From: Candidatus Curtissbacteria bacterium RIFCSPLOWO2_02_FULL_40_11
GTDB taxonomy: Bacteria; Patescibacteriota; Microgenomatia; Curtissbacterales; GWA2-41-24
Reading direction: 5' to 3'
DNA: 38,941 nt
Assembly: GCA_001776505.1 (NCBI GenBank)
Contig: MFBV01000044.1
Span: 1 to 38,941 of the forward strand
The notes below the pieces were generated by a model. The model had not been told where the DNA came from. It searched no databases and was given only the letters and a program-made list of their open reading frames with translations. The position numbers were made by a program, and so were the translations under genes. Positions within the stretch are counted from its first letter, which is position 1, and every line of letters begins with the position of its first letter. Positions 4,499-36,331 of this stretch are shown here, in pieces.

Positions 4499-4536
4499 TT
4501 ATTTCTAGGTTAATCCCAACTTGTCATAATGTCTTT
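4499..4536 (-). pseudogene. rpsO: Second displaced rpsO 3'-end copy (decayed)
   Basis: AAA GAC ATT AT- GAC AAG TTG GGA TTA = KDI(I)DKLGL with a 1-nt deletion. Confidence 0.75.
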
Positions 4537-4569
4537 TAGACCGCTCGCGTTCGCAAGGACATTACCTTA

Positions 4570-4605
4570 TTACTTAGGTAAACCCAATTTATCTATTATA
4601 TCCTT
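4570..4605 (-). pseudogene. rpsO: First displaced rpsO 3'-end copy
   Basis: AAG GAT ATA ATA GAT AAA TTG GGT TTA CCT AAG TAA = [11 protein letters not shown], identical peptide to the rpsO end with 9 synonymous nt differences. Confidence 0.92.
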
Positions 4606-4673
4606 TATTAAGAACGGCGCACTATTGAAACAACGATTTCAATAGTAGTGTAGTCCTTAGCAAAGATATTATT
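4606..4673 (-). other. Structured spacer (attC-like hairpin) between active and displaced rpsO ends
   Basis: AATAATATCTTT-GC-..AAGGAC..ACTATTGAAA-TCGTTG-TTTCAATAGT..GTTCTT..TA; homologous to the spacer after rpsT. Confidence 0.7.
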
Positions 4674-4938
4674 TCGGCAAGCCTAGTTTATCAATAATAT
4701 CTTTATATCTTTCTGGCGCTTTTCTCGTTAAAAAATGAAGGAGTCGGCGCCTTTTATTGATCATTGATAGGAGGCCTCTCCTAGAGTGATTATCATGAGA
4801 GTGATTTTTTAGGTGATCTGCAACATTGCCAATTCTCTGAGAAAGAAGTGCTACCTGAACTTCTGGAGAACCGGTATCACCCTCGTGAGTTTTAAACTTG
4901 TCGATTACCTGTTTTTTTGCAGTCGATTTTGTAGCCAT
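4669..4938 (-). CDS. rpsO: 30S ribosomal protein S15
   Basis: [24 protein letters not shown]. Confidence 0.99.
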
Positions 4939-4964
4939 TTTGATAGGGGCTTAGTATATAGAAA

Positions 4965-6008
4965 TTATGATTCTCTGTCAAAAGATTTAGATCCTCGATA
5001 GACTTTAGGCGGTTTTAACCACGCTTTTTTAGAAGCTTCTTTTGATTCCACATCTTCAATAGGTATTGTAGATTGCTCTTCAGTGTATAAAGGATTATTG
5101 GGCCCTTGAATTGACGGGATAGTTGGTGATTTTACTCTTTGGATTCTATCCATGTTTGGTGATTGTGTCTGTTGGTAATTAATCCCGGATATTCTGTCTA
5201 TTTTAATATCTCGTTGCTTGAAGATTTTATCGTACGTATGTCTGCTTGCTAAATTCACCTCTCTAGACTCGCTGGCGAGGCTGGCTCTACCTGCTCCTAA
5301 TTGTAATAAATGCTTTGCTACCTCTAATGTTGAAGGCGCTGTAGATTTTGGGGAAAACATTTGGGTAGTTAATTTTATTCCAGAATATAAATTGAAAGAT
5401 ATATCTTCATCGAACGGCAGCGCAAGATCAGTAATAATTCTTGTGGTCAACTCGCTAATAGTCGCTGCTTCTGGATCATCGAGTTCAATTTGTGCAAATT
5501 TCTCGGGTGGTTTGTTTTTATTAATAGACATGATCCACTTAGTTGAACTATTAATTTGCTCACGAGTAATTTCATTATTCATTTCTCCTGCTGAACTGAA
5601 CCCAATCGCGATAACCGTGTCTGGGTAAGAAACACTTTTGTCCAGAGAAATACTATCTTCAGAAATTCCTTCTGCACCCGCAAGTGCGTGTACCTTAATT
5701 TTTAATTCATCACCTTCCAGGTTGTAAGTTACTTTATCCACTGTATTGATTGCATTGTTAATTACTATAACTAAGTCTTCTTTCCCTTGTAGTTTGCCGA
5801 TTTTATCCACACCATATAAGTTGTTCGCATCGTTAACTGTAGGTTCACTTGCTATTACATTTGCATTTTTACCTGTTTTTTTTATCGACAGATAAAGTGC
5901 AAGTCCAGATGCAAGACCGTCAAAACCGCTTTTTTTTGAAACAGCTATCAATATAGTTTGGGAATTAGAAAGTTTTTCAAGTATTTGTTTTTTTTGGAAA
6001 TCTTCCAT
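4965..6008 (-). CDS. DHH/NrnA-like phosphoesterase-fold protein (degenerate active site)
   Basis: DGLASGLALY, ATISEL and LYSGI..T..F motifs; no DHH triad; low-complexity C-terminus. Confidence 0.65.
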   Translation of the reverse strand: MEDFQKKQILEKLSNSQTILIAVSKKSGFDGLASGLALYLSIKKTGKNANVIASEPTVNDANNLYGVDKIGKLQGKEDLVIVINNAINTVDKVTYNLEGDELKIKVHALAGAEGISEDSISLDKSVSYPDTVIAIGFSSAGEMNNEITREQINSSTKWIMSINKNKPPEKFAQIELDDPEAATISELTTRIITDLALPFDEDISFNLYSGIKLTTQMFSPKSTAPSTLEVAKHLLQLGAGRASLASESREVNLASRHTYDKIFKQRDIKIDRISGINYQQTQSPNMDRIQRVKSPTIPSIQGPNNPLYTEEQSTIPIEDVESKEASKKAWLKPPKVYRGSKSFDRES

Positions 6009-6066
6009 GTTATTGAGTAATCAATTTATCCAGAAAATATTTTGATTTATTAGCAAGGATACAATT

Positions 6067-34562: not shown

Positions 34563-34691
34563 TTATTTAGCTTTAATTCTTTTTGCTGATTTTGCCCTTC
34601 GAGCTAAAGCCTCAGGACTTGCAGCTTCTATGGTTTAGACAGTCGATATTTTGGACGACAATCTAGTGAAATGGCTGTTGACGTCGTCGCT
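34563..34691 (-). pseudogene. rmuC: Displaced recoded rmuC 3'-end copy containing a REP-like insert
   Basis: SDDVNSHFTRLSSKISTV*TIE... versus active SDDVNTRFSRLSSKISTVQTIE. Confidence 0.92.
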
Positions 34692-34716
34692 TTTTTTGTG
34701 ATTCATATTTGTTATT

Positions 34717-35082
34717 TTAAACAAGCGATTCAAGACCCAAAACGATTTTGAGAGCGTCTTCGACTTCAAATAACTTGTAACTGGTAAGATTCCCTACCTT
34801 GTTTATCAATCTTCCCTTGTCTACCGAACGAATTTGGTCAACAATAATAGCCGATCGCTTGTCTAGGCCTTCATTCTCTATGTCTACAATGTTAGGACCC
34901 ATAAATTCGGGAACGATTGAGCTGAAAGGTACCATTATAAGAGTATTAGAATTTTTATTTAAAGTATTGTTAGAAATTACAAGTATAGGTCGTTTTTTGC
35001 GCATTTCACGGCCAAAACCCGGATCCAAATCCGCGATAAAAATTTCGCCGCGTTTAGGGTAACTTTTCGAATGCTTCTGCAT
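34717..35082 (-). CDS. mazF: MazF/PemK-family toxin
   Basis: RGEIFIADLDP..GREMRKKRPILVISN, DQIRSVDKGRL. Confidence 0.93.
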   Translation of the reverse strand: MQKHSKSYPKRGEIFIADLDPGFGREMRKKRPILVISNNTLNKNSNTLIMVPFSSIVPEFMGPNIVDIENEGLDKRSAIIVDQIRSVDKGRLINKVGNLTSYKLFEVEDALKIVLGLESLV

Positions 35083-35293
35083 CTACGTACTTAAAATCTT
35101 CCTGAATCTCTCTATAAATTTTACTATTTAATTTGAGGCTTTTGATTAAGTCTTTTTTAAGGTTTTTTTTGCGTTTCAATTTTTCTTCTAAAGCTGCGGC
35201 AATGAACTTACTGCGTGATCCGCCGGGAATTGTTTTCCTGAGATCTCGCGCCAAATCCGCGGGCAATGTAATATTGATCCTTTGTGTCTGCAT
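35054..35293 (-). CDS. RHH-type antitoxin
   Basis: RINITLP..L..RSKFIAAAL; homologous to the antitoxin at 15373. Confidence 0.85.
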   Translation of the reverse strand: MQTQRINITLPADLARDLRKTIPGGSRSKFIAAALEEKLKRKKNLKKDLIKSLKLNSKIYREIQEDFKYVDAEAFEKLP

Positions 35294-35302
35294 TACACAT
35301 TA

Positions 35303-35330
35303 ATTATACACACTTGATATTTTGGGTCAA
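35303..35330 (-). promoter_or_regulatory. Sigma70 promoter of the mazF module
   Basis: TTGACC-16 nt-TATAAT. Confidence 0.7.
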
Positions 35331-35335
35331 GCTGT

Positions 35336-36331
35336 TTAACCTTTTGGTTTTAAACCTTTAGTTTTGTGACTTTCTATGGTCTGCACTGTTGATATCTTCG
35401 AGCTCAGACGAGAGAAGCGGGTGTTGACATCGTCAGAGCTGGCGGCGGCGTTTTTGATGTGCTTGGTAAGAACTGAGAGACTTCCGCCGAATTTGTCGGT
35501 CTCGTCGCCGATTTCGCGAAGAGCTGCCAGAATTTGGCCGGCTTGGGCTTCGATTTTTGAGCCTTCCAAACTCATGATGATTGCACGCAAGTAAGCATAC
35601 ATGGTGCTTGGGGAAACCGGGCGCACGCGTTTGCGGTAGGCGTAATCGTCCAGTTCAGGCGCATTTGAAATCATTTCGTAATATACCGGTTCGGAAGGGA
35701 TGTACATTAGTGCAAAATCCAATGTTCCTTCTTGTGGACGGATGTATTTCGTGCTGATCGCGTCGATGTGCTTTTTTACGTCTGATATAAATGCCTTTCG
35801 GTGGATGGCTTGATCTTTTTCTTCACGCGCCTTTGTCATCTTGCGGAAATTTTCCATAGGGAATTTAGCATCTATTGGAATAATTCCTTGTTCAAGCTGA
35901 ATCGCCGCGTCTACAATTTCCCCTCCTTTAAATGCGTATTGCAAGTGAAAATGTTGTTTGGGCAAAGCTTGACCTAAAATATCTTTGAGTACAGCCTCAC
36001 CAATTTGCCCGCGCATTTTGGGTGAGCGCAGAAATTCCTGTAGATCTTTCATAGATCTGCCAAGTTCGGTCATCTCGCCTACACTCTTGGATACTCCCGA
36101 AATTACTTGAGCTGCCCTATCAAGTCTCTCATTGATAGCTTTAGTCTGTTTGACCATGGATTCTGTAGTATTGTCCATGGAACCGCGCATATCGGAAACA
36201 AGTTGAGTTAAGAGTTTAGTAGTTTCGTCACTATTTTTATTTTCTGTCAGTTTTTTTATTTGGAAATAGATGACTGCCAAAGCTGCGATTACTAAAGAGG
36301 CGACCAGAATTAAAATTGTCTGCGAATCCAT
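35336..36331 (-). CDS. rmuC: DNA recombination protein RmuC
   Basis: PKMRGQIGE, IPIDAKFP, KHIDAISTKYI, TLDFALMYIPSE. Confidence 0.95.
   Translation of the reverse strand: MDSQTILILVASLVIAALAVIYFQIKKLTENKNSDETTKLLTQLVSDMRGSMDNTTESMVKQTKAINERLDRAAQVISGVSKSVGEMTELGRSMKDLQEFLRSPKMRGQIGEAVLKDILGQALPKQHFHLQYAFKGGEIVDAAIQLEQGIIPIDAKFPMENFRKMTKAREEKDQAIHRKAFISDVKKHIDAISTKYIRPQEGTLDFALMYIPSEPVYYEMISNAPELDDYAYRKRVRPVSPSTMYAYLRAIIMSLEGSKIEAQAGQILAALREIGDETDKFGGSLSVLTKHIKNAAASSDDVNTRFSRLSSKISTVQTIESHKTKGLKPKG

Follow-up and report, generated by a model that had tools for sequence, protein, structure and literature searches.

Candidate integrase-less insertion units that supply replacement 3′ ends to conserved genes in a Candidatus Curtissbacteria genome

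Tail copies at five genes of the window

The window analysed here is a stretch of 38,941 nt from Candidatus Curtissbacteria bacterium RIFCSPLOWO2_02_FULL_40_11 (GenBank assembly GCA_001776505.1, contig MFBV01000044.1), in which startless copies of a gene's own last 11-40 codons were found 3′ of rpsO (twice), rpsT, lepA, a UvrD-helicase/PD-(D/E)XK nuclease gene (hereafter UvrD-nuclease gene) and rmuC (Table 1). The original prediction, made from the bare sequence, had described such copies at these five genes, and each was recovered at its place. Several downstream copies are decayed, as had also been claimed: the oldest rpsO tail, T3, is frameshifted, the lepA copy has lost one base and the rmuC copy carries an in-frame TAA. 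At lepA, 19 residues align at 89% identity (14958..15014) and the match continues past the one-base deletion to 14941, the displaced copy starting immediately 3′ of the stop codon of the PIN gene. In the rpsT copy 16/19 residues are identical, and thereafter its ending is longer and different. The UvrD-nuclease copy matches over 16 residues at 88% identity (30367..30414) and begins 32 nt past the stop codon.

Table 1. Positions in the window of the five genes, the intervening sequences and the tail copies
Feature	Position	Strand	Remarks
rpsO	4669..4938	-	ends in the present, incoming tail T1 (11 codons, 4672..4704)
rpsO spacer 1	4606..4668	-	reverse complement of T1 start first, then 11-bp hairpin, loop TCGTTG
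rpsO displaced tail T2	4570..4605	-	peptide perfect, 8/11 codons respelled, own stop codon
rpsO spacer 2	4537..4569	-	CCTTGCG .. CTA frame
rpsO oldest tail T3	4505..4536	-	one base missing, frameshift
lepA	15705..17567	-	incoming tail is the last ~24 codons
lepA cargo, antitoxin-like gene	15373..15651	-	weak RHH_5 match
lepA cargo, PIN toxin gene	15015..15380	-	PIN, E 2.3e-19
lepA displaced tail	14941..15016	-	one-base deletion; 85% identical to G023 single tail
rpsT	20832..21098	+	new, shorter ending ..KPKTSSK*
rpsT spacer	21099..21158	+	CTTTGCG, two hairpins (second: loop TCGTTG), ..CTCTA
rpsT displaced tail	21159..21254	+	3′ end and flank beyond match G002 single tail
UvrD-nuclease gene	30447..33503	-	incoming tail CNYCAYNSICPFSLAKIT*
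UvrD-nuclease gap, 32 nt	30415..30446	-	repeats the gene's 8 bases TGCATGCA; CCCTGAGC..TCGAAGGG repeat copy
UvrD-nuclease displaced tail	30361..30414	-	CVYCAYKSICPFSLAKP*; peptide identical to G002 working tail
rmuC	35336..36331	-	incoming tail ..TKGLKPKG*
rmuC cargo, antitoxin-like gene	35054..35293	-	weak RHH match
rmuC cargo, PemK/MazF toxin gene	34717..35082	-	PemK, E 4e-26
rmuC displaced tail	34563..34691	-	in-frame TAA; ending resembles G023 single tail

The sequence between gene and copy is of two kinds. The gaps at lepA and rmuC hold the toxin-antitoxin modules that had been predicted there (ribbon-helix-helix/PIN and ribbon-helix-helix/PemK, respectively), and a promoter-like TTGACC..TATAAT lies directly after the rmuC stop codon, ahead of the cargo. 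For the remaining gaps a hairpin site had been claimed; this holds for the rpsO and rpsT spacers and fails for the UvrD-nuclease gap, which shows no clear hairpin, folds no better than its shuffles (z +1.2) and holds a dispersed repeat. The inverted copy of the T1 start in the first rpsO spacer gives a 12-bp stem around the tail (folding z of this spacer -2.98 against shuffles), and the second rpsO spacer corresponds to the one found behind the same tail allele in genomes G001 and G002.

The original prediction had suggested a genome-wide process, and this proved right. The last 45 aa of 1111 ORFs were searched by tblastn against the whole genome, and matches of at least 25 bits within 3 kb were counted. 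Downstream of the genes, 48 matches shared the gene's strand and 0 lay on the other; upstream, 21 shared it, these being tandem paralogues, and 2 did not. Removal of 15 tandem paralogues, 3 low-identity matches and 1 diversity-generating-retroelement (DGR) pair from the downstream matches left ~20 candidate genes in the 0.94 Mb genome (~2% of genes), and the process extends to the family as well.

Origin of the second tails

Conserved peptides with heavily changed synonymous sites, another feature of the original prediction, were evident across 16 tail pairs. Of 329 codons, 150 differ only synonymously and 49 non-synonymously, which gives a pN/pS of 0.134 (bootstrap 0.099-0.174) against 0.52-0.86 for simulated in-place duplicates with a neutral copy. 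Pairs from the short, spacer-bearing units (class I) have identical codons at 62/147 same-residue positions, and random codon choice predicts 58.8. The copies are adjacent and co-oriented, and in the rho array a block of two units has recently been duplicated in tandem, as might be expected if gene ends had simply been duplicated locally and had since drifted. This reading is contradicted both by the pN/pS ratio and by relatives, whose single tails match the downstream copy and not the upstream one; in addition, the two endings of rpsT and of rmuC are unlike in length and sequence. We consider it very improbable.

Relatives also reveal the polarity of the events. The single rpsT tail of G002, together with its downstream flank, matches the downstream copy of the window, and the UvrD-nuclease tail peptide of G002 is exactly that of the downstream copy. 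The single rmuC tail of G023 matches the downstream copies in G000, G001 and G002, and the lepA tail of G023 is closer to the downstream copy (85% identity) than to the gene-proximal one (74%). At rpsO, G002 and G001 differ by exactly one extra gene-proximal unit of tail, stop codon and spacer within flanks that are ~97% alike. It is thus the downstream copy that corresponds to the one tail of relatives lacking the insert, and the gene-proximal tail came with the insert; polarity indicates, at all five window genes, a 3′ end supplied by the insert and an old end that persists as a repeat downstream. This agrees with the earlier proposal of an incoming tail that displaces the old one, and the units are very probably insertions that carry foreign tails.

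The genome is a 45-contig metagenome assembly, and contig C45 has an apparent tail copy that proves to be a genuine DGR template/variable pair (16/16 mismatches at template adenines, reverse transcriptase gene adjacent), which would suit an explanation by two-strain assembly chimeras or by DGR repeats. For the five window genes this explanation is contradicted. Chimerism, which the original prediction had itself raised as an objection, was not seen in contigs from runs not marked as possible source: three junction regions (both of lepA and the whole rpsT arrangement) are reproduced there with 0 differences. Seventeen further genomes, 16 from the family and 1 from a sister family, moreover show the same architecture. 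As for DGRs, mismatched bases in the 16 pairs comprise all four kinds (A 72, T 74, C 59, G 55) and are thus not adenine-specific, so that DGR activity is rejected as a general cause and confined to the separate C45 locus. An artefact is hardly credible here.

Events recur at the same genes across the family. They were detected at 8/24 family and 0/5 farther rpsO loci, at 5/16 near and 0/11 farther rplL loci and at 4/10 near and 0/12 farther rho loci, and at lepA in G009, G006, G017, G020, G022, G018 and G001. Events at the same gene in relatives start at different points and are therefore independent, and a given core type can sit at one gene in one genome and at another gene elsewhere. Within the genus, rpsO has three tail alleles, which diverge from one another as much as the flanks do and occur in the order C-B-A in G000, A-B-C in G002 and B-C in G001; from sequence comparison, shuffling within genomes would fit these orders as well as transfer between genomes.

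Frame and cargo of the units

Class I units are ~70-150 nt long, with spacers of 23-84 nt in which no ORF was found. They share an ordered frame, which may be written (with the slash marking the joint) as AARG and tail up to the stop codon, then the first bases of that same tail in reverse complement, ending in YTT, then GCG, a variable stem-loop and CTA / AARG with the old tail. The AT/AARG target and the CTA/AARG joint were present in 12/12 cleanly mapped units and YTTGCG in 20/26 short units. The inverted copy matches at least 8 nt of the unit's own tail start in 16/26 units and of the next tail in 4/26, the mean match in shuffles being 4.2 nt. Exact identity at both junctions is limited to AARG in class I or TGCATGCA at the UvrD-nuclease gene (~4-8 bases). 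Units stack as tail arrays with no element body between them, and class I cores are low-copy in the genome (3, 1 and ~6-8 copies). The YTTGCG..CTA frame and the inverted copy are absent from four lepA units of relatives and from the UvrD-nuclease unit, and the stability of three of four folded spacers was no greater than that of shuffles.

This frame bears on whether any dedicated machinery is needed. Relatives' DNA might instead be taken up and incorporated by unequal or homology-facilitated illegitimate recombination, for which the gene body provides the anchor, with hairpins serving just as break or end points and toxin-antitoxin cargo being kept by addiction. Such a route would be in keeping with the tail alleles that lineages share in different orders, and with rpsT, where the gene-proximal tail resembles G002 in its first 13 codons (34/39 nt, counted by hand) and the displaced copy resembles it only at its 3′ end, a pattern that fits a crossover inside the tail. 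Likewise, G000 and G002 share 91% identity across the MazEF-type cassette region and 71-83% in neighbouring blocks of at least 500 bases. Random microhomology joins would, however, not be expected to produce YTTGCG beside an inverted copy of the own tail start, nor the same target and joint in every mapped unit. Tails of 33-60 nt at 65-85% identity are furthermore poor substrates for RecA-type recombination. Overall, we judge entry without dedicated machinery to be rather improbable.

Longer units (class II) carry toxin-antitoxin pairs, PadR, DsrE, DUF5674 or a Y1 gene as cargo. The pairs are of type II, made of adjacent small genes, with PIN and PemK toxins and weakly matching RHH partners in the window and, at two sortase genes, MazE+PIN and HicA+HicB. 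No hairpin was seen at the right end of the toxin-antitoxin cassettes at lepA and rmuC.

Recombinases, RAYT-like genes and a possible mode of movement

The original prediction had noted neither integrase nor endonuclease. Profile searches support this for the window, where no recombinase gene was found, and not for the genome, in which 8 Y1/HUH, 4 tyrosine (PF00589; contigs C14, C9, C42 and C29) and 1 serine (PF00239; C23) recombinase genes were detected, all of them on contigs other than that of the window. All PF00589 and PF00239 matches lie outside the window and the examined cassettes, whose sole recombinase gene is a RAYT-like Y1 gene inside the zwf cassette.

Temperate phages and islands at tRNA or protein genes, integrative and conjugative elements (ICEs), SCC at rlmH and cis-mobilisable CIMEs restore the 3′ end of their target gene, and such restoration is a textbook pattern of integrating elements. 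The units could accordingly be remnants of integrase-driven elements (prophages, ICEs, genomic islands or CIME-like derivatives) that use gene 3′ ends as att sites and of which toxin-antitoxin modules or short scars are left, with trans-acting recombinases supplied from other loci. The five tyrosine and serine recombinase genes, one of which, a tyrosine recombinase gene (C9:8215-8697), lies ~320 nt past the displaced copy of the C9 event, and a 17-nt tRNA 3′ end duplicated around one spacer-type hairpin on C8 speak for this, and addictive toxin-antitoxin cargo would survive element decay. As in integrative elements, the insert sits within a gene 3′ end, supplies a replacement end and leaves the old one as a downstream direct repeat; tandem accretion yields several copies, and CIMEs are short recombinase-less derivatives. 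The units differ in having no integrase in or beside them, in their size (the smallest ~70 nt), in junctions at which a few bases are shared exactly, in fully respelled tails and in the ~2% of genes affected. An ordered frame common to different genes and genera is not what random deletion would leave behind, and tail arrays stacked with no element body between them also speak against remnants. A standard integrative element is rejected on the lack of a tyrosine or serine recombinase gene in the window and the examined cassettes, and remnants of such elements seem unlikely. SCC elements at rlmH are treated in PMC10581047.

Eight PF01797 genes score above the cut-off, with HUH and Tyr motifs visible in their sequences. 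Their best NCBIfam match is the REP-associated tyrosine transposase (RAYT) family NF047646, at scores (68.6, 58.3 and 42) that fall under the curated cut-off of 80. All 8 are flanked by hairpins of their own, at least 4 of the hairpin sets being tagged CTAAAAG or TTAAAG. The kef-like spacer belongs to a 36-copy repeat family that flanks the RAYT-like copy on C30; this spacer excepted, class I cores did not match the hairpins beside RAYT-like genes. A recombinase or HUH gene whose presence tracks the events, as the original prediction had proposed to look for, did not emerge: G008, G015 and G020 (86-89% complete) have events and no PF01797 match, so co-occurrence is not strict.

The best reading of these data, and one that we hold to be somewhat probable, is a family of integrase-less mobile units that restore gene ends. 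A unit would enter a gene from a few to ~45 codons before its stop, bringing a working copy of those codons from a diverged relative and a stop codon. In class I a hairpin spacer of 30-80 nt would come next, and in class II a small number of genes, for the most part toxin-antitoxin pairs. The gene's former tail would be pushed downstream and decay, and in stacked units the newest would adjoin the gene. Class I may move as small single-stranded or circular DNA, cut and joined at CTA/AARG beside the hairpin; in the circular form, inverted copy, core and tail start would make one long hairpin spanning the joint. In the low-depth contigs examined, circles, empty sites and excision joints were all absent. 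The unit would land in the corresponding tail of the same gene, either in a different genome or in a further copy of the chromosome, and class II cassettes might spread likewise or by recombination between tail copies. The enzymes may be the RAYT-like Y1/HUH transposases acting in trans; such single-strand chemistry as the engine is a tentative suggestion.

Also speculative is the view of class I as a new kind of selfish 70-150 nt hairpin element that homes into the coding 3′ end of one gene and is moved as single-stranded circles by RAYT-like HUH enzymes. Site recognition or processing would proceed via the 8-14 nt inverted tail start beside the YTTGCG..CTA/AARG hairpin frame, insertion would be harmless because the unit carries its own respelled tail copy, and competing alleles (rpsO A/B/C, rplL ENAQ/ETAN) would cycle through the gene-proximal position across the family. 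The compact class I frame, with its inverted tail start, hairpin and 7-nt site, would also merit attention as a case in nature of DNA insertion addressed by sequence.

If the favoured reading of integrase-less units is true, essential conserved genes of very small genomes (ribosomal proteins, rho, lepA, H+-pyrophosphatase) are routine landing sites for mobile DNA, the price of insertion being paid by a built-in spare gene end, and RAYT-like genes, common yet unexplained in such genomes, would gain a testable substrate. It would account for the position and arrival of many orphan toxin-antitoxin pairs there. It is also a warning for annotation: the last codons of a conserved gene can differ in history from the rest, and such mixed history affects trees, dN/dS scans and strain typing.

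Several known systems resemble the units in part. In IS200/IS605 elements a TnpA gene lies between two subterminal hairpins, insertion is 3′ of a fixed 4-5 nt target, and in peel-and-paste movement a short guide near the hairpin foot pairs with the cleavage or target site. Class I units likewise have a hairpin near the element end, sequence 5′ of it complementary to the junction, a short specific target motif and no fixed-length target duplication; unlike IS200/IS605, the complementarity is 8-14 nt instead of 4, there is one hairpin instead of two, and the unit lacks a transposase gene and carries part of the target gene. REPs are extragenic and high-copy, and we know of none that carries coding sequence. 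REP/REPIN elements with RAYT genes, as covered in PMC3733652 and 10.1101/2021.07.10.451892, share with our genome short hairpins with a conserved short tag at one end and Y1/HUH genes between their own hairpins; they differ in that our RAYT-like genes fall below the NF047646 cut-off and the cores of the units are low-copy and lie inside gene ends, accompanied by a tail and by the start of that tail in inverted form. The cores were thus rejected as the numerous extragenic REPs of a RAYT gene, only the kef-like one resembling the C30 family.

The attC site of integron cassettes carries R''/R' boxes (..AAC / GTT..), and integrons need IntI and attI. Integron cassettes were rejected by eye against this consensus, the unit ends reading YTTGCG and CTA/AARG. 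Free-standing homing endonuclease genes, which the original prediction had named as an analogue, can substitute the 3′ end of a gene in organelles or phages, atp6 of Allomyces being an example. There, as in the units, the gene stays intact thanks to a foreign C-terminal piece, and its original piece persists downstream; unlike those endonuclease genes, class I holds no endonuclease or any ORF and the units sit at many target genes of a bacterial chromosome. With class I devoid of ORFs and class II cargo of the kinds listed above, homing endonuclease replacement was rejected. Lastly, according to PMC2935791 on C-terminal displacement in rhs/CDI toxin genes, new 3′ ends are added with cargo and old tips are displaced downstream as orphans, much as here; the tips in that account are different toxins that serve diversity, whereas the tails described here encode the same peptide and belong to housekeeping genes.

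Tail copies in the window and across the genome

All six tail copies claimed in the original prediction were found in the window, two of them at rpsO and one each at rpsT, lepA, the UvrD-nuclease gene and rmuC. The terminal eleven residues of rpsO are repeated sixty bases downstream with eight codons respelled, and a frameshifted third copy lies beyond. The rpsT copy agrees with the gene at 16 of 19 residues before a different, longer ending, while that of the UvrD-nuclease gene starts 32 bases 3' of the stop codon. At lepA the copy, which is one base short, begins immediately past the stop of a PIN gene, and at rmuC it is located after a PemK gene and contains a TAA.

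The last 45 residues of 1111 ORFs were then compared with the whole genome (G000) by tblastn, retaining matches of at least 25 bits within 3 kb. Downstream matches numbered 48 on the same strand and 0 on the opposite strand; upstream, there were 21 and 2, respectively. The 37 genes covered included 15 tandem paralogues or doubtful small ORFs, 3 low-identity cases and 1 true DGR, leaving 18. With the addition of rpsO and rpsT, whose shortness put them beyond the reach of this search, about 20 genes are affected, or about 2% of the genes in G000; the suspicion of a genome-wide process was borne out. Further targets recognised by Pfam were G6PD, a Na+/H+ exchanger with TrkA_N, an H+-pyrophosphatase, a ComM-like ATPase, two sortases, an AIR-synthase-like protein, a SpoU methylase and the zinc-ribbon end of topoisomerase I; rplL and rho were identified by sequence and by matches in relatives.

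Two loci showed more than one displaced tail (coordinates of these and other features are tabulated below). Downstream of rho, the final 12 codons (KEFLDSLSKDVK) recur at least four times, separated by two distinct spacers in alternation, and a two-unit block is present as a nearly exact tandem duplicate; on the opposite strand, a spurious ORF of 75 residues spans the copies. The ComM-like gene is followed by a short displaced tail after a 35-nt spacer and by a longer one, with an in-frame stop, 1.7 kb off beyond genes for PadR, DsrE and others. The cassette therefore seems to have entered an already occupied site.

Coordinates of features in the window and on other contigs of the same genome
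Feature	Contig	Position	Strand
pnp upstream leader	window	about 4340..4480	
RVT_1 fragment near lepA	window	17569..18003	-
198-residue ORF near lepA	window	18135..18731	-
UvrD-family protein	window	24962..26902	+
UvrD-family protein	window	30447..33503	-
TCGTTG-loop hairpin beside tRNA gene	C8	about 4400..4800	
rho tail array	C22	about 6400..6725	
TCGTTG-loop hairpin in non-coding DNA	C22	17981..18034	
DGR target	C45	7906..8673	
DGR template repeat	C45	9017..9127	
DGR reverse transcriptase match (RVT_1)	C45	9755..10369	
ComM-like gene, short displaced tail	C45	17606..17676	
ComM-like gene, longer displaced tail	C45	19339..19419	

Assembly artefacts were considered using contigs assembled from single sequencing runs (Logan), the runs not being marked as a possible source of this DNA and the contigs having low word depth (bin means mostly about 2.5-13). 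Contigs X14 and X16 span the junction between the PIN gene and the old tail, X16 that between lepA and the antitoxin gene, and X9 the whole rpsT arrangement, all without a difference. Among the joints listed for these contigs, none corresponded to the precise removal of a unit or to a circular form. Overall, the tail copies are judged to be real, and the inserting process originally inferred from them is supported. Mismatches between paired tails were not adenine-specific. One candidate pair, on contig C45, proved to belong to an intact DGR: the last 37 codons of the gene differ from the downstream repeat at 16 positions, all at repeat adenines (16/16), and an RVT_1 gene follows. It was excluded from the codon statistics.

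Origin of the tails and order of arrival

The 16 tail pairs comprise 329 codons: 127 identical, 150 with synonymous changes only, 49 with residue changes and 3 that are stops in the copy. The corresponding pS of 0.80 and pN of 0.108 give a ratio of 0.134 (bootstrap 0.099-0.174), whereas in-place duplication, simulated in 30 runs as a constrained gene copy with a neutral second copy, gave 0.52-0.86; this simulation and the codon-saturation test used 17 pairs, the DGR pair included, and the codon counts alone were recomputed without it. Drifted in-place duplicates were rejected on this comparison, in agreement with the synonymous-site bias previously read as speaking against recent tandem duplication. 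In the hairpin class, 62 of 147 same-residue codons were identical, with 58.8 expected under a random draw from genome usage, so the tail spellings of this class have nothing in common beyond the peptide. The low ratio and the random level of codon identity together indicate that both tails had long evolved as working gene ends before they became adjacent.

Comparison with relatives allowed the newcomer to be identified at five genes. In G002, the single rpsT tail (..KKSAKS*) and the sequence following it match the downstream copy of the window (..EKSPKS*) and not its working tail (..KPKTSSK*). The downstream copy at the UvrD-nuclease gene has exactly the peptide of the G002 working tail, and the working tail of the window resembles that of G001. 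At rmuC, the PemK cassette and a different working ending are common to G000, G001 and G002, while G023 has no cassette and a tail that matches the downstream copies of all three. The lepA tail of G023 shares 85% identity with the downstream copy but 74% with the working tail; in G001, the same PIN gene end is followed by the displaced tail. Lastly, G001 and G002, about 97% alike around rpsO, differ there by one clean block of tail, stop codon and 33-nt spacer, which is gene-proximal and lies between TAT and AAG, although a precise loss in G001 would look the same. These tails indicate that new units enter beside the gene and that older tails are pushed outward, as had been predicted.

Tail copies were found at rpsO in 8 of 24 same-family loci and 0 of 5 farther relatives. 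Near relatives carried them at rplL in 5 of 16 cases, one of these in a sister family, and at rho in 4 of 10; among farther relatives the counts were 0 of 11 and 0 of 12, respectively. For rpsT, the count was 0 of 29. Copies at lepA occur in G009, G006, G017, G020, G022, G018 and G001, with four start points and differing contents. A class-wide scan of 401 genomes with the lepA end gave a second match in 6 of 27 family genomes and, outside the family, a candidate second match in five genomes among the matches listed (G030, G305, G335, G362 and G404); second matches in G010 and G019 correspond to split genes and that in G313 may do so. None of the claims made here depends on G092, which is flagged as unpublished. 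In G010 (locus L060) and G019 the C-terminal query matches as two pieces (about 1-66 and 54-119) in one long open frame, which suggests an in-frame insertion inside the gene.

Lineage-specific residues are common to copies and resident gene (KIGL in G018 and ELPR in G015, for example), pointing to fairly close relatives as donors; rpsO bodies within the genus already differ at many third positions. Three rpsO tail spellings were recognised in the genus, in the order A-B-C in G002, B-C in G001 and C-B-A, with A frameshifted, in the window. Manual counts put the identity of each allele between genomes at about 83-86%, equal to that of the flanking genes. G000, G001 and G002 all retain the unit formed by allele B with its spacer, and G023 retains part of it. 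For rplL, each of two tail classes (..KENAQ.. and ..KETAN..) can be either working or displaced. Such alleles could reflect either two-way exchange of units between lineages or reshuffling of old arrays within genomes.

Architecture of short and longer units

On the gene strand, short hairpin-spacer units share a frame consisting of the working tail from AARG, a stop codon, zero to about twelve bases, an inverted copy, GCG, a variable and mostly G+C-rich stem-loop, and (C)CTA, after which the displaced tail starts, again from AARG. The inverted copy is the reverse complement of the first 8-14 bases of the unit's own tail, ending YTT. An automatic pass over 26 short units at five genes in many genomes found YTTGCG in 20 of them. 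The inverted copy matched the start of its own tail over at least 8 bases in 16 units and that of the following tail in 4, the average for shuffled controls being 4.2 bases; it reached 14/14 bases at rplL and 13/13 at rho of G008. All 12 units with cleanly mapped borders read AT|AARG on the gene side and CTA|AARG on the far side. Unit counts come from automatic mapping, in which the aligner mis-set six borders (L002, L003, L022, L038, L124 and L152); CTA|AARG was read by eye in five of these, the sixth, L038, being a lepA unit without the frame. The frame is missing from the UvrD-nuclease unit of the window and from four lepA units found in relatives, all of which use a different dispersed repeat, CCCTGAGC..GAAGG. 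Across the genome, an inverted tail-start copy of at least 9 nt lay just after the stop codon at 32 of 1052 genes, versus 24 in a control window; it is therefore no general habit of the genome and is confined to the units.

The first rpsO unit, in which a 12-bp stem of tail start and inverted copy encloses the rest of the tail before an 11-bp hairpin, folds better than its shuffles (z -2.98), but nothing comparable was seen for rpsO spacer 2, the spacer at rpsT or the gap at the UvrD-nuclease gene. Cores of the same type recur at different genes in different genomes: GTCCTCGTC..GACTGCGGG at rho in G000 and at rpsO or rplL in other genomes, GTGCTCGCTTCGC at the SpoU gene in G000 and rpsO in G015, and a TCGTTG-loop core at rpsO, rpsT, rplL and hppA in G000 and rplL in G010 and G025. 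The F3-type spacers at four genes, with a mutual similarity of only 53-75%, are unusable for dating units against tails. The TCGTTG-loop hairpin also occurs once in non-coding DNA with an 11-base direct repeat (AGATCAATTAC) on both sides, and once, in the opposite orientation, beside a tRNA gene with a second copy of its 3'-terminal 17 bases about 180 nt away. These occurrences indicate that the process does not require coding sequence as such.

Longer units carry genes, namely ribbon-helix-helix/PIN and ribbon-helix-helix/PemK pairs at lepA and rmuC, MazE+PIN and HicA+HicB at the two sortase genes, DUF5674 at the AIRS gene, PadR, DsrE and others at the ComM-like gene, and an ORF without an assigned family plus a Y1/HUH gene at zwf. 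Their junctions have no common motif, except AAGG again at lepA. Between G000 and G002 the PemK cassette region is 91% identical, and neighbouring blocks of at least 500 bases 71-83%, which hints at either later spread of the cassette or stronger constraint.

Integrating phages, islands, SCC elements and organelle homing genes provide known examples of inserts that restore the gene ends they interrupt. Full-text literature searches, judged from titles and the starts of abstracts, returned no account of such units. In these searches we did not find described the combination of a minimal, ORF-less, hairpin-framed form, its density, stacked and cycling tails that are fully respelled, and an inverted copy of the tail start.

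Candidate enzymes and genome setting

The absence of an integrase or recombinase holds for the window, with 0 matches to Phage_integrase, Resolvase or Y1_Tnp, but not for the genome, where 4, 1 and 8 matches were found, respectively. Classical recombinases acting in trans would be one source of the activity, which we consider unlikely. The eight Y1 proteins, 200-231 residues long, are diverged paralogues that contain the HUH and Tyr motifs, and their best NCBIfam match, below the cut-off score, is the REP-associated tyrosine transposase (RAYT); a PDB sequence search with one of them gave 0 matches. Each Y1 gene has its own hairpin on both sides, and CTAAAAG or TTAAAG stands before or after at least four of these hairpins, a sequence that resembles the CTA|AARG unit end. 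The hairpins of the Y1 copy on contig C30 are members of a 36-copy family that also supplies the spacer of the kef-like unit. By our own tally, relatives with events have more PF01797 (Y1) matches on average, the relatives not being independent, and G008, G015 and G020 are exceptions with events and 0 matches; the link of Y1/HUH genes to events by counts is a trend only, no more than suggestive.

Because each inverted copy corresponds to the tail of the unit that carries it, a perfect long hairpin of inverted copy, core and tail start would form only with the two ends of the unit joined. Mainly for this reason, we propose a circular or end-joined intermediate. Single-strand chemistry of the RAYT type is put forward tentatively, as a possible but doubtful mechanism, and recombination without any dedicated machinery appears improbable.

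The genome is a 938-kb assembly of 45 contigs with 39% G+C, the window being the whole of contig C44, and the sequencing runs containing its DNA are labelled as groundwater and soil metagenomes. From translations, with Pfam confirmation for the UvrD-nuclease gene and rmuC, the housekeeping genes of the window were named as pnp, rpsO, infB, nusA, dnaJ, dnaK, grpE, hrcA, lepA, murJ-like, rpsT, ispG, tpiA, uvrD, the UvrD-nuclease gene and rmuC. Rfam gave 0 families across the window at gathering score, including for the pnp upstream leader (GGGTTGTTGGAAGTTGA .. hairpin .. CCGATTTCTAACTCC), which is strongly conserved family-wide and also lies 3' of rpsO in loci L002-L025. Immediately upstream of lepA, a fragment of a reverse transcriptase (RVT_1 positions 122-205, with one in-frame TAG) adjoins a 198-residue ORF without a Pfam match; the two may be a decayed DGR, and a repeat of the ORF end was absent across the genome. 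Short, charged stretches of low complexity (for example, ..ASEAKQSRKKDRHVESDS.. and ..RHSERSEESQDPSS..) occur in both UvrD-family proteins and have the appearance of in-frame insertions of a dispersed G+C-rich repeat.
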